Shown: positions 1,030 through 11,375, counted from the stretch's first letter. The stretch is 64,000 bases of DNA from an uncultured Methanosarcinales archaeon (GCA_964630685.1 CAZVVW010000001.1:30236-94235); one strand, 5' to 3'. The notes: a model not told the origin generated them from the letters alone. A program made the numbers and translations.

Positions 1030-1140
1030 ATGAGTAAGATAACAAATGAAATATTACGAGAACAAGTTCTCGAAAGTTTTGCTTTTAATAGTCAAAACAA
1101 GAAGGAAATCTCTAAATTAGAAGGTGATATTTATGAGTAA
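1030..1140 (+). other. 36-codon upstream ORF whose N-terminus (MSKITNEILRE) duplicates the N-terminus of the downstream aCPSF1 gene (MSKITDEILKE); its stop (TAA 1138-1140) overlaps the main ATG (ATGAGTAA)
   Basis: Direct nucleotide repeat atgagtaagataacaaatgaaatatta (1030-) vs atgagtaagataacagacgaaatatta (1133-); complete ORF read by eye. Confidence 0.35.
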
Positions 1141-3028
1141 GATAACAGACGAAATATTAAAAGAAATTCCTGATGGAAAAATATCGGAAGTAAATTTTGA
1201 GGGCGCTAATATTGTGCTCTATACAAAAGATGAAGATTTTTTCTTTAATAATAATGGCATGGTAAGAGATATTGTGCATAAATTCAAGAAAAGAATAGAA
1301 TTAAGACCAGATCCTGCAATTTGTATGGATGCTGAATTAGTAAAGAAAAAAATAAAAGAATTATTACCAGAAGAAACTGGAATAGATAATATTATTTTTG
1401 ATCCAAAAAGAAGTAGAGTTATAATTGAAGTTGAAAAGCCAGGTTTGGCTATTGGAAAACAAGGTAGTCTTCTTAGAGAGATAAAAAATGAAACTTTGTG
1501 GATTCCTCAGGTAAGAAGAAAACCTGCAATAAGGTGTAAATTAATAGAAGGAATTCGTGCGGTTTTGTATCAAAATTCTGAATCAAGAAGAAAATTTTTA
1601 GATAAAGTAGGGCATAGAGTATATGATGGTTGGATAAGAGCTAAAAAAGAAGAGTGGATAAGGTTAACTTATCTTGGTGGAGGAAGAGAGGTTGGAAGAA
1701 GTTGTTTATTTTTACAGACTCCTGAATCAAGGATATTATTAGATTGTGGAGTGAATGTAGCATCTGATAAATATGCGTATCCTCATTTAGAGGCACCTGA
1801 ATTTAAAATAGATGAATTGGATGCTGTGCTTTTGAGTCATTCACATATAGATCATTGTGGATTTATTCCTTATTTGTTTAAGTATGGATATAAAGGCCCT
1901 GTTTATTGTACAGCGCCAACAAGGGATGTTTCTGCTTTATTGCTATTAGATTATGTTAAAATTATGAGATCTGAAGGGAAAGAACCAATATTTACATCTA
2001 AAGAAGTTGAACAGATGGTTAAACACACTATTTGTCTTGAATATGGTGCTGTTACTGATGTTACTCCAGATATTAGAATTACTTTGTATAACGCTGGTCA
2101 TATTCTTGGTAGTGCAATGATACATATGAATGTGGGTAATGGGTTACATAATTTACTTTATACTGGAGATATGAAGTTTGGTAGAACAAAATTATTAGAA
2201 CCAGCTGTAACTGAATTTCCTAGGCTTGAAACTTTAATGATTGAATCTACATATGGGAAAAAAGAAGATGTACTTCCTTCAAGAAAAGAATGTGAAGATA
2301 TGATGGGTAATATCATAACTGAAACACTTAATAGAAACTCAAAAGTGTTAATACCAGTACTCGGTTCTGGAAGAGCACAAGAAGTATTATTGATTATTGA
2401 TGATTTGATTACTAAAGGGGCAATTAAAGAAGATGTTCCTGTATATATTGATGGAATGGTTTGGGATATAACAGCAATCCATACTGCATATCCTGAGTTT
2501 TTGAATAATTCGGTTAGAAAATTAATATTCCATAAAGACCAAAATCCTTTTTTGAGAGAAAACTTTAAACAAGTTGGTAGTAAAAAAGAAAGGCAAGGCG
2601 TTATTGAAGACGAAGGTGCTTGTATAATCATGGCTACATCTGGTATGCTTGTAGGTGGACCTAGCGTAGAATATTTAAAGAATTTATCTTCTAATCCTAA
2701 AAATTCTATGATTTTTGTGAGTTATCAGGGAGAAGGTTCCTTAGGTAGGAAAATTCAAAGAGGAGTTAAAGAATTTTCACTTATGTCTGGCCAAAAACAG
2801 AATACTTATCAATTGAATATGGAAGTCCATACAATTGATGGTTTATCAGGTCATAGTGGTAGAAGAGAATTGATGAATTTTGTGTATAGATGTCATCCAA
2901 AACCAAAAAAAGTGATTGTAAATCATGGTGAAAGTTCTAAAACATTAGATTTAGCTTCCTCTTTACATAAAGCAAATAGAATAGAGACCGCCGCACCACA
3001 AGATTTAGAGACTATTAGGATAAAATAA
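1133..3028 (+). CDS. Archaeal CPSF1 / FttA-type ribonuclease (N-terminal KH domains + metallo-beta-lactamase + beta-CASP); transcription termination factor homologue
   Basis: HSHIDHCGF metallo-beta-lactamase motif, beta-CASP region, ~630 aa; GGTGAT Shine-Dalgarno 6 nt upstream of ATG 1133 (the ORF track's start at 1124 is a GTG just upstream). Confidence 0.9.
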   Translation: MSKITDEILKEIPDGKISEVNFEGANIVLYTKDEDFFFNNNGMVRDIVHKFKKRIELRPDPAICMDAELVKKKIKELLPEETGIDNIIFDPKRSRVIIEVEKPGLAIGKQGSLLREIKNETLWIPQVRRKPAIRCKLIEGIRAVLYQNSESRRKFLDKVGHRVYDGWIRAKKEEWIRLTYLGGGREVGRSCLFLQTPESRILLDCGVNVASDKYAYPHLEAPEFKIDELDAVLLSHSHIDHCGFIPYLFKYGYKGPVYCTAPTRDVSALLLLDYVKIMRSEGKEPIFTSKEVEQMVKHTICLEYGAVTDVTPDIRITLYNAGHILGSAMIHMNVGNGLHNLLYTGDMKFGRTKLLEPAVTEFPRLETLMIESTYGKKEDVLPSRKECEDMMGNIITETLNRNSKVLIPVLGSGRAQEVLLIIDDLITKGAIKEDVPVYIDGMVWDITAIHTAYPEFLNNSVRKLIFHKDQNPFLRENFKQVGSKKERQGVIEDEGACIIMATSGMLVGGPSVEYLKNLSSNPKNSMIFVSYQGEGSLGRKIQRGVKEFSLMSGQKQNTYQLNMEVHTIDGLSGHSGRRELMNFVYRCHPKPKKVIVNHGESSKTLDLASSLHKANRIETAAPQDLETIRIK

Positions 3029-6664: not shown

Positions 6665-6939
6665 GAAAAGTATTTATAATATTTGAATTCTTATTGATTT
6701 ATTGTTTTTACTAATTAGTAAAAACTATATTGTAGGGGATATATGTTGGAATATAACAATATTTAAATACTATTTGCGACTATTGAGTGATAATAGTTTA
6801 TAAGCTTATGGAGAATAAGATTCTCTTTAATATTAACTAAAATTTAACTTAAAAAGTTTGGGGGTAAAATACCAAGAAGACTCATTTATTCGTCTTCAAG
6901 GTTTTTTACAATTATATTAAATTTAGGGGGTAAAAAACA

Positions 6940-9801: not shown

Positions 9802-10396
9802 TTAATCTTCTAAATGTTTATTGCAATTAAACACTTTTACATTGTGTTTTCTATCATCACTAATTTCTAGAATAGTCATTGATGTATTTTTATGAATATA
9901 TTTTAGATAATTTTTTTCTGGCTCGTTATGTAGGGCCATTAATAAACATCTTACAGGTCCTCCATGAGTTACTATTAACACAGTTTTACCAATATGTTTA
10001 TCAATTAATTTATTATAGAATTTCATTGTTCTTTGTTGAACTTCTGACATTGACTCTCCACCCTCTGGTTTAAAATCATTGTAAGGCTTTTCTGTTTTCA
10101 TTATAGCTTTATGAAGAACATCTCCGGAGCCTCCCTCATAGATTCCTTTGTTTTGTTCTCTTAATTCTTCTGTTAGAATCAGTTTTGTTTCTGGGTGAAA
10201 TTTTAATATTGCTTCTGCTGTGTGTTTTGCTCTTGTTAGATCGCTAGAATAAGCAAACTTTTTCATCTTTTAATCTGTCTACTATTTTTTTTATCTGTTC
10301 TCTTCCTTCATCAGAAAGAGAAGTATCTAAATGGCCTTGAGTAATCTTTTTTTTATTTTCAGCTGTTTGCCCATGTCTAATAATTATTAATTTCAT
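9802..10396 (-). pseudogene. Histidine phosphatase superfamily (phosphoglycerate mutase/CobC-like) gene split by a frameshift in an A5 run (plus-strand T5 at 10259-10263)
   Basis: N-terminal piece MKLIIIRHGQTAENKK...GHLDTSLSDEGREQ (RHG catalytic motif) starts at 10396 and stops prematurely. The downstream piece from ATG 10266 continues FAYSSDLTRAKHTAEA...LIVTHGGPVR in another frame. Removing one A restores a ~197 aa phosphatase. Confidence 0.7.
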
Positions 10397-10526: not shown

Positions 10527-11375
10527 ATGAATAAAAATAATGCTTTGATTGTATTTCAAGGAAAAAAAGTTAGAAGAATATGGTTTAATGATGAATAGTG
10601 GTTTGTTATAAAAAGATATAGTTTTAGTACTTACAGATTCTAAAGATCCTTCTCAATATTTAAAGAGAATTAGAAGCAGAGACGATGCTTTGAATCAAGC
10701 TTTTAAAGAGGGGGGGTACAATTTGTACCCCCCCTTGGTTTGGAGTTTAAAACTTCTAGAGGGTATCAAATGCTCCAATGTTGGAATACTAAAGGAATAT
10801 TTAGATTAATCCAATCAATCCCTTCTAAACGCGCTGAACCTTTCAAACAATGGTTAGCAAAAGTAGGATACGAAAGAATAAAAGAAATTGAGAATCCTGA
10901 ATTAGCTCAGAAAAGAATGAAAGAAATTTATAAAGCAAAAGGGTATTCTGATAACTGGATTGAAAAAAGAGTTAGAGGAATAGCCATAAGGAATGAATTG
11001 ACAGATGAGTGGAAAAATAGGGGAGTTCAAAATCAAATTGCTTTTGATATACTTACCAATGAAATTACTAAAGCTACTTTTGGTAAGAATGTTGAGGAAT
11101 ATAAAAAATATAAAAGTCTAGATAAACAAAATTTAAGAGACCATATGGATGATATAGAACTAATTCTTACTATGTTGGGTGAAGCAACAACTACAAGGCT
11201 CACTCGTGAAAGAGACTCTAAAAAATTTCCTAAGTTAAAAAAAGATGCAAAAGATGGTGGAGACATCGCAGGTAATACAAGAAAAAATATAGAAAAAAAA
11301 TTAAAAAAGAAAGTAGTGTTAAAAGAAAATTATATCAAAACTTTTGAAAAGAAAAAGAAATTAGACAATCAATAA
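10527..11375 (+). pseudogene. DinD/Bro-N-type (DNA-damage-inducible protein D-like) gene disrupted by an in-frame TAG at a conserved Trp position plus two compensating frameshifts
   Basis: MNKNNALIVFQGKKVRRIWFNDE-TAG-WF | +1 at A5 (10610-10614) | KDIVLVLTDSKDPSQYLKRIRSRDDALNQAFKEGGYNLYPPLVWSLK | shift back near 10749-10752 | TSRGYQMLQCWNTKGIFRLIQSIPSKRAEPFKQWLAKVGYERI...NLRDHMDDIELILTMLGEATTT. The whole reading matches the DinD family from memory. Confidence 0.65.
10710..10734. repeat. Perfect hairpin palindrome GGGGGGGTACA-ATT-TGTACCCCCCC (11-bp arms, G7/C7) inside the disrupted DinD-like gene
   Basis: Read directly; G7/C7 runs are extreme for this AT-rich genome. Confidence 0.8.

Follow-up and report, generated by a model that had tools for sequence, protein, structure and literature searches.

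A base-paired coding hairpin conserved in one clade of Bro-N genes and its copy in an archaeal pseudogene

A stretch of 64,000 nucleotides from an uncultured Methanosarcinales archaeon (GCA_964630685.1 CAZVVW010000001.1:30236-94235), analysed over its whole length and referred to here as the window, carries a perfect, G+C-rich palindrome at positions 10710-10734 (GGGGGGGTACAATTTGTACCCCCCC), which lies inside a disrupted gene for a Bro-N-domain protein. Judging from the DNA of homologous genes, this palindrome is the local pseudogene copy of a native, in-frame hairpin that characterises one clade of Bro-N genes. Comparative sequence data further show that an intramolecular helix is maintained at this fixed site of the open reading frame (ORF) across Bacteria, Archaea and viruses, and that it is maintained at the expense of the encoded peptide. 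No description of the coding hairpin was found in the literature, and no family of Rfam 15 covers it, either in the window or in the homologues. The element is apparently an undescribed, deeply conserved coding hairpin, for which we tentatively favour a role as a selected, cis-acting stem-loop, probably in the mRNA.

Conservation of base pairing within the Bro-N coding sequence

The orthologous stretch was taken from 80 genome, 80 metagenome, 6 plasmid and 80 viral-contig loci. Among 205 distinct homologous genes from Bacteria, Archaea, plasmids and viral contigs (40-71% protein identity), 200 form at least 9 of 12 Watson-Crick pairs at the site, whereas control windows from these genes reach this value in 12 of 1230 cases. 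These genes contain 124 distinct 27-mers at the site, and the palindrome has not been deleted in any of their lineages. The subfamily nearest to the window has 12 genome representatives, whose host organisms have a GC content of 40-67% (Verrucomicrobiota, Paceibacteria, Nitrospiraceae and others). Each representative keeps the G-run and the C-run at the nucleotide level, including third codon positions. The first-pass annotation of the window had regarded the palindrome as a nucleic-acid feature in its own right, had proposed to look for it in homologues, and had conceded that it would be coincidental if these encoded the same residues without it. The homologues do carry it, and because they retain it down to third codon positions, coincidence is refuted; a chance coincidence of codons is likewise rejected by the homologue DNA, a codon-usage control and the control windows.

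The peptides encoded by the hairpin are unrelated between subfamilies (GGVQFVPP, GWVQIVHT, GWGQIATP, ELSTFCRQL, VVTKCNQ, LYENIVQL and others). Examples of the underlying sequences are GGGTGGGTACAAATTGTACATACCC (KGWVQIVHTL), GGGTGGGGGCAAATTGCCACCCCCC (KGWGQIATPL), AGTTATCGACATTTTGTCGACAACT (ELSTFCRQL), GGTTACAAAATGTAACC (VVTKCNQ) and TACGAAAATATCGTA (LYENIVQL), along with two perfect palindromes, CAAACCGTTACAAAATGTAACGGTTTG (QTVTKCNGL) and CAACTGGCTACAATTTGTAGCCAGTTG (QLATICSQL). The 19-nt core of the window copy, GGGGTACAATTTGTACCCC, is read in another frame (WGTICTP) by the subfamily with the peptide NWGTICTPL, and in the third frame (GGDNLSPP) by homologue L023. Located at codons ~62-71 of the ORF, the stem comprises about 13 pairs and is often lengthened by AA...TT from flanking Lys and Leu codons. 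Its centre is always A/T-rich, the predicted loop measures 3 nt in 130 of 138 sequences, and the two largest subfamilies, b and b', carry two mismatches or bulges in an arm of 12-13 bp.

Covariation supports the pairing directly. Over 76 distinct 45-mers, 80.9% of cells were paired, compared to 61% after shuffling and 39-48% when the partner was slid along the sequence. The covariation score reached 0.521, whereas shuffled alignments gave 0.205 (none of 500 shuffles exceeded the observed score) and slid ones 0.11-0.18, and changes on both sides were seen in all 15 pairs. Compensatory changes above both the shuffled and the slid controls are what we looked for in a structured cis-element; pairs at a distance of 2-14 from the centre are supported by covariation, and those at 15 and 16 are not. 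Whole codons switch together in the process: Ser TCG occurs with Arg CGA and Ser TCT with Arg AGA, and further matched pairs are CCA with TGG, GAT with ATC, GTG with CAC, and GTT with AAC.

The same signal is found where only synonymous changes are considered. In peptides of the form E/Q-L-x5-Q-L, the third base of the Glu/Gln codon and the first base of the distal Leu codon are matched in all cases, with 21 G-C and 13 A-T combinations and none discordant (p 1e-9), and the first base of the proximal Leu codon covaries with the third base of the Gln codon (p 5e-6). Gly GGG or GGA matches Ala GCC or Val GTC in 25 of 25 and 6 of 6 cases. Palindromic encodings of QL...QL make use of two of the four possibilities, CAGTTG..CAACTG and CAACTG..CAGTTG; the other two, whose arms are themselves self-complementary (CAATTG, CAGCTG), never occur in 34 distinct sequences. 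Codon choice is equally skewed in the stem, with Gly encoded by GGG in 76% and Pro by CCC in 93% of cases, compared to 12% and 22% in the rest of these 140 genes. When all columns of a 137-gene codon alignment were scanned, excess codon identity was confined to the hairpin columns (K, G, Q, I, P, L), and no further synonymous constraint that could mark a larger RNA structure or another nucleotide-level element appeared anywhere in the gene.

Subfamily b (e.g. L012, L044 and L060) adds an imperfection that is itself conserved. All 28 genes, GC-rich ones included, use CAT for the His of the stem, while His codons elsewhere are divided between 31 CAT and 36 CAC. This subfamily thereby has an invariant G.U(T) wobble beside a G.A mismatch, even though CAC is synonymous and would pair. 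As to the nature of the element, a protein site of fixed sequence is ruled out by the compensatory double changes, which suggest a hairpin formed by RNA or else by DNA, be it single-stranded or extruded. In canonical phage Bro-N antirepressors (SM1 gp15, phiCDKH02 and M51), ~15 residues are missing at precisely this position and no palindrome of this kind is present, so the hairpin sits in a clade-specific insertion. The initial suggestion that the palindrome is the remnant of an insertion therefore holds in this deep sense only, and not in the sense of an insertion that disrupted the gene.

The copy in the window and its host gene

The window copy is a perfect inverted repeat, AGGGGGGGTACAA-T-TTGTACCCCCCCT (10709-10735, no strand assigned), and constitutes the local representative of the family-wide coding hairpin. 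Its arms measure 12 nt around a single central T at 10722, or 13 nt when A10709 and T10735 are counted (10709-10721 and 10723-10735); they are thus longer than the 11 bp of the first-pass annotation, which had correctly placed the palindrome within a disrupted gene. Stem pairs extend from distance 2 to 14, and a 3-nt loop is predicted at 10721-10723. This is the longest perfect inverted repeat across the 64 kb and the sole G+C-rich one. It holds the only C7 run and one of the four G7 runs of the window (~31% GC). As had been proposed, we folded the site and searched for further copies. The 53 nt around the palindrome fold stably both as RNA (-30 kcal/mol, z -5.3) and as DNA (-14.2 kcal/mol, z -4.3). 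The palindrome occurs once in the window, with no match expected even at three mismatches in 100 shuffles, and a covariance model of the family hairpin hits this site only (44.4 bits, E 1.7e-12; next best E 0.75). With a single copy in 64 kb by both exact pattern and covariance model, it does not resemble multicopy palindromic mobile elements of the REP, MITE or RPE type. An assembly or sequencing artefact is rejected, because the palindrome and all lesions of the gene are identical in 10 contigs that were assembled independently from samples of ENA, JGI and Logan. Elsewhere in the window, an intergenic near-perfect palindrome without spacer (TATTGTTTTTACTAA/TTAGTAAAAACTATA, 15-nt arms, 93% complementary) is located at 6700-6729, ~210 nt upstream of a gene for a 939-aa surface protein.

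The host gene is a Bro-N-domain pseudogene of the "phage antirepressor / DinD-like" family and extends on the plus strand from the ATG at 10527 to the stop codon at 11373-11375. DNA alignment with the intact genes of P0004, a relative from the same sample series as the window, and P0005 identifies exactly three lesions. At 10596-10598, a premature TAG replaces the TGG codon for Trp of the NDEWWF motif, as is also evident from the protein alignment. At 10610-10614, an A5 run has one base more than in the relatives (TTATAAAAAGAT vs TTAT-AAAGGAT / TCAT-AAAAGAT) and produces a +1 frameshift, which is visible in the three-frame translation as well. At 10708-10709, a 2-nt GA insertion, which is a duplication of AG, lies directly 5' of the G run (TTTAAAGAGGGGGGGT vs TTTAA--AGGAGGGGT / TTCAA--AGGGGGGGT) and brings the reading back to the original frame (+1 and +2 giving +3). 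A phase-variable frameshift within the G or C run is rejected, given that the insertion is located 5' of the run. Without the three lesions, the gene encodes a protein of 281 aa that aligns to P0004 without gaps at 71% identity. The palindrome had been assigned to a middle segment in the +1 frame and to the peptide EGGYNLYPP, which is incorrect: it is read in the frame of the downstream segment, where the codons GGG GGG GTA CAA TTT GTA CCC CCC (10710-10733, plus strand) specify GGVQFVPP, the same peptide as in P0004. In the AlphaFold2 model of P0004 (pLDDT 69.5), the corresponding residues 63-71 lie in a coil flanked by a helix and a beta strand of the Bro-N domain.

The repaired protein passes the Pfam Bro-N model (PF02498) over residues 14-113 with 34.4 bits (cut-off 25.6), and homologues, of which more than 8000 were found at E<1e-10, carry this domain. 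"DinD-like" proved to be a weak label, since the DinD model (NCBIfam NF008573 / PRK11525) reaches 18.2 bits against a cut-off of 242, and over the C-terminal part only, and BLASTP of the host protein against E. coli DinD reveals no similarity (E 15). E. coli dinD is also rejected as a carrier of the hairpin: in addition to the missing protein similarity, it contains no palindrome above 8 of 12 pairs. Genomes of the Woesearchaeota and Nanoarchaeota type harbour the closest homologues of the host gene, and the window itself contains an archaeal marker, an aCPSF1/FttA gene with a KH_TffA domain at 1124-3028.

The palindrome was inherited along with the now dead gene and did not cause its death. 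It is native and in frame in intact genes, and the lesions adjoin it without falling inside, which does away with the idea that it is the scar of a gene-breaking event. Stranded behind a stop codon, a +1 and a +2 change, the hairpin in this window is probably an inert relic. The adjoining gene has a lesion of the same kind: a histidine-phosphatase gene (His_Phos_1; 9802-10396, minus strand) is split into ORFs of 50 and 154 aa by a +1 change in an A run (A5 on the coding strand, T5 at 10259-10263), where A4 would restore ...DRLKDEKFAYSSDL..., similar to the A4>A5 change at a distance of 350 nt in the Bro-N pseudogene. Most of the independent assemblies show this split, and all share essentially the same DNA. 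An Rfam scan of positions 1-64000, with tRNA and rRNA models included, returned no family at its gathering score.

Candidate roles and competing explanations

Among the explanations that we weighed, a selected, cis-acting stem-loop, probably in the mRNA, appears the best placed, although our confidence in it falls a little short of even. According to this proposal, the transcript would fold into the stem-loop and selection would keep the pairing for that reason, with the structure acting in cis on the expression of its own gene. It might serve as a brake or checkpoint, independent of the host, for translation or for the survival of the mRNA, as a processing or stability determinant of the mRNA, or as the binding site for a protein, possibly the nucleic-acid-binding product of the gene itself. 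A device that needs no host-specific factor would suit a gene that moves among Bacteria, Archaea and phages. We favour the mRNA because the site is always transcribed, and we favour RNA over a cruciform because, by our reasoning, the mismatches and bulges of subfamilies b and b' would be tolerated by an RNA stem and poorly by an extruded one. As RNA, the stem folds at a mean of -15.3 kcal/mol, compared to -4.5 kcal/mol for shuffled sequences, and of 138 sequences, 83 fold better as the sense strand and 39 as the antisense strand. Selection on RNA is also preferred over the copying of one arm onto the other, because the G.U beside the G.A mismatch of subfamily b is itself invariant.

Several observations weigh against such an mRNA element. 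The mean energies of sense and antisense strands differ by just 0.5 kcal/mol, and the asymmetry between wobble types is weak (41 G.T vs 24 A.C). Moreover, GGA reaches 15-19% although it creates an A.C on the sense strand, and CCT, with which a G.U arises there, reaches only 3%. One homologue (Chlorohelix, L176) has lost the pairing with its ORF still intact. We know of no RNA-binding factor common to Bacteria and Archaea that reads a hairpin of this kind. In addition, published work argues that inverted repeats can stay perfect through template switching, in the absence of selection (PMC5941160, PMC8794818).

The last point leads to the explanation of concerted evolution without function, which we regard as unlikely on balance, though it is the rival that deserves most attention. 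The inverted repeat would have arisen once, perhaps by a template switch that also created the extra protein loop, and further template switching would copy arm onto arm, with selection on the protein doing nothing but vetoing harmful conversions. Two published studies, which report that imperfect repeats are preferentially corrected, count in its favour (Lavi et al., 2018, PMC5941160; Monttinen & Loytynoja, 2022, PMC8794818). So do the mostly strict Watson-Crick character of the palindromes, in which G.U is not clearly preferred, and the persistence of mismatches at positions constrained by the amino acid. Degraded gene copies that retain the stem at 9-10 of 12 pairs, and a pseudogene copy that is perfect although its gene is dead, speak both for arm copying and against a selected mRNA element. 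The arms are indeed mostly perfect, yet arm copying should convert CAT to CAC in subfamily b, a correction that is synonymous and free, and that is found in none of the 28 genes. Subfamily b' has kept its offset bulges through dozens of diverged genes, palindromes conserved in coding sequence are rare apart from this one, and the genes of the family contain no second site of such behaviour. Arm copying also leaves it puzzling that no lineage of the 205 genes deleted a supposedly useless, deletion-prone palindrome and that QL...QL is restricted to half of its palindromic encodings; because of these two features, selection fits better than drive.

A structure formed by the DNA itself, either a cruciform extruded from supercoiled DNA or a hairpin of single-stranded DNA, is in our estimation rather improbable. 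It could act as a transcription roadblock sensitive to supercoiling or damage, or as a structure-specific binding site, possibly for the DdrC-like product of the gene. Classical cruciform-forming repeats such as that of ColE1 have the size and design seen in the window and in subfamily a, namely 13 perfect pairs, G+C-rich arms and an A/T-only centre; by ColE1-type sequence criteria (at least ~11-13 perfect pairs, A/T-rich centre), these two fit and subfamilies b and b' do not. The lack of a strong strand bias and the weak resemblance of the predicted protein to the DNA-damage protein DdrC agree with a DNA structure, and a switch based on the physics of DNA alone would function whatever the host. 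Against this stand, by our reasoning, the two mismatches or bulges in the b and b' arms, which should make extrusion very costly, as well as the conserved G.T beside G.A, which looks RNA-like, and the modest DNA fold of the window copy at just -14 kcal/mol. The putative structure that blocks transcription or replication, as put forward in the first-pass annotation, is a possible reading of the site.

The same annotation had offered a nuclease or recombinase site, or the footprint of the disrupting insertion, and we consider either highly improbable. The site is palindromic, a frameshift immediately adjoins it, and the segment that carries it is an insertion relative to canonical Bro-N domains; intact genes, however, hold the palindrome in frame, and the arms of the homologues differ through compensating changes and stay complementary, which is incompatible with an enzyme that reads a fixed sequence. 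Tyrosine-recombinase cores have a spacer of 6-8 bp, whereas the centre of the hairpin measures 1-5 nt. There is one copy per locus and per window, with no partner within 1.5 kb, and the 124 sequence variants, changing in a complementary manner, do not describe a recombinase or restriction site. The adjoining lesion is a simple AG duplication for which the other arm is not the template.

Least probable of all, in our view, is an antisense small RNA (sRNA) that uses the palindrome as its terminator. It was suggested by ar15 (RF02345), which matches the minus strand at 10705-10802 over the full model length and takes the palindrome as its terminator stem. This match scores 35.8 bits (E 2e-5 in a 1.2-kb search), below the gathering score of 40, and is probably spurious: no match is seen in 17 homologue loci or, at the gathering score, in the whole window; ar15 is alphaproteobacterial and the host archaeal; and the places expected for an antisense promoter or the remaining sRNA show no synonymous constraint. 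No terminator-like site was detected on either strand between 10300 and 11500, and the mid-ORF position of the hairpin, the archaeal host and the unconserved tails likewise speak against a Rho-independent terminator. A stimulator of -1 frameshifting does not fit either, as the codons upstream of the hairpin vary (AAA, GAA, CAA and unrelated ones) and no conserved X XXY YYZ in the zero frame was found by inspection.

Genomic setting, related systems and implications

The element appears to come without partners. Within 1.5 kb on either side, a second copy of the arms, be it a partner site, an upstream operator or terminal repeats, was not found beyond chance (9 matches vs 16 for shuffled arms), and no neighbouring gene is conserved across the family; only genes of a lysogeny module recur, and only in related gut viral contigs, where the Bro-N gene is near genes for a CI-like repressor and an integrase. 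Because a second arm copy and a conserved neighbour are both missing, we consider the element to be self-contained. A covariance-model search of the 80 viral loci (592 kb) placed every strong match inside a copy of the Bro-N gene. The family is present on 132 IMG/VR contigs, and a phage- or plasmid-borne element as the rule is rejected, given its presence in 4 of 50,697 phage records and 22 of 72,556 plasmids. Individual settings differ: on the Arcobacter cloacae plasmid pACLO (L173, 2986-3882), a gene of the family is located within a type I-B CRISPR-Cas operon, between cas4 and cas1b, and in Parabacteroides the Bro-N gene adjoins a pair of genes with DUF86 and nucleotidyltransferase domains, which we read as a HEPN/MNT toxin-antitoxin system.

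Truncated or degraded Bro-N copies were observed directly upstream of intact ones at four loci: L032 (~1480-1800), L048 (~1500-1800), L102 (~1401-1700) and L214 (1572-1616). In the first three remnants, 9-10 of the 12 hairpin pairs persist, and at L214 the upstream site matches the covariance model. In protein P0001, the N-terminal domain is tandemly duplicated. Together, the remnants and this duplication suggest frequent local duplication or replacement of the Bro-N gene.

No solved structure was retrieved by sequence, and no catalytic domain was recognised. The best Foldseek match of the P0004 model is the DNA-damage DNA-binding protein DdrC of Deinococcus, with weak scores (E 7.5e-5, TM 0.31-0.40). 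A broader and more doubtful proposal than the mRNA stem-loop would be that the hairpin is a portable, host-independent switch, be it an mRNA stem-loop or a supercoil-sensitive cruciform, that gates a DNA-binding protein of the DNA-damage or antirepressor type and may be bound by that protein. In such a switch, the peptide would be subordinate to the structure, with the same nucleotides being translated in three frames across lineages.

Cis-acting RNA stem-loops in coding sequences are known from the arfA mRNA hairpin of E. coli and the cre element of picornaviruses. The Bro-N hairpin resembles them as a single stem-loop within an ORF, with locally suppressed synonymous variation and compensatory pairs; both act on the molecule that carries them, and by analogy the Bro-N hairpin may do likewise. 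Both also depend on known factors (RNase III and tmRNA for arfA, the 3D polymerase for cre) and are restricted to narrow lineages. The Bro-N hairpin, in contrast, spans Bacteria, Archaea and phages, and constrains its peptide to such a degree that the subfamilies differ in frame. Other cis sites are located inside the gene for the very protein that uses them, such as the origin hairpin IR-II of pT181 in repC, the phiX174 origin in gene A, and the P22 pac site in gene 3. These, too, are nucleic-acid sites within a coding sequence that are inherited with the gene, and the pT181 site is a hairpin or cruciform; unlike the Bro-N protein, whose best structural match is DdrC, their cognate proteins are nucleases or terminases with defined sites. 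Rickettsia palindromic elements are inserted in frame into genes, and share with the Bro-N hairpin a palindromic segment that is translated as an extra surface loop. However, they are 100-150 bp long, multicopy, and decay after insertion, whereas the Bro-N hairpin has ~29 nt, is single-copy, and is maintained.

In 2019, functional protein-coding genes were reported to contain perfect inverted repeats, with both the function of the protein and the secondary structure being preserved (PMC6649704). Those repeats are many, reach up to 284 bp and belong to one genome type, while the Bro-N repeat is short and occupies one orthologous site of one gene family across domains. The perfect short inverted repeat and its multi-base compensatory changes are also reminiscent of repeats kept by template switching (PMC5941160, PMC8794818). 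Different from what arm copying alone would yield are the wobble and mismatch at the invariant CAT codon, the stable offset bulges, and the absence of loss over deep divergence.

Conserved structures inside prokaryotic coding sequences are rarely found, because comparisons of RNA motifs focus on intergenic regions. For the window alone, the practical message is modest, and the interest lies in the hairpin at the level of the family. If the hairpin is kept by template switching only, it would be among the clearest natural cases of this process shaping a protein over deep time. If the portable switch proves true, it would represent an undescribed class of cis-elements and an unusually clean overlapping code, in which nucleic-acid structure dominates protein sequence. 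And if the hairpin is functional, it would constitute a regulatory device without a host-specific factor, which could help to explain how a gene stays controllable after its transfer between domains.

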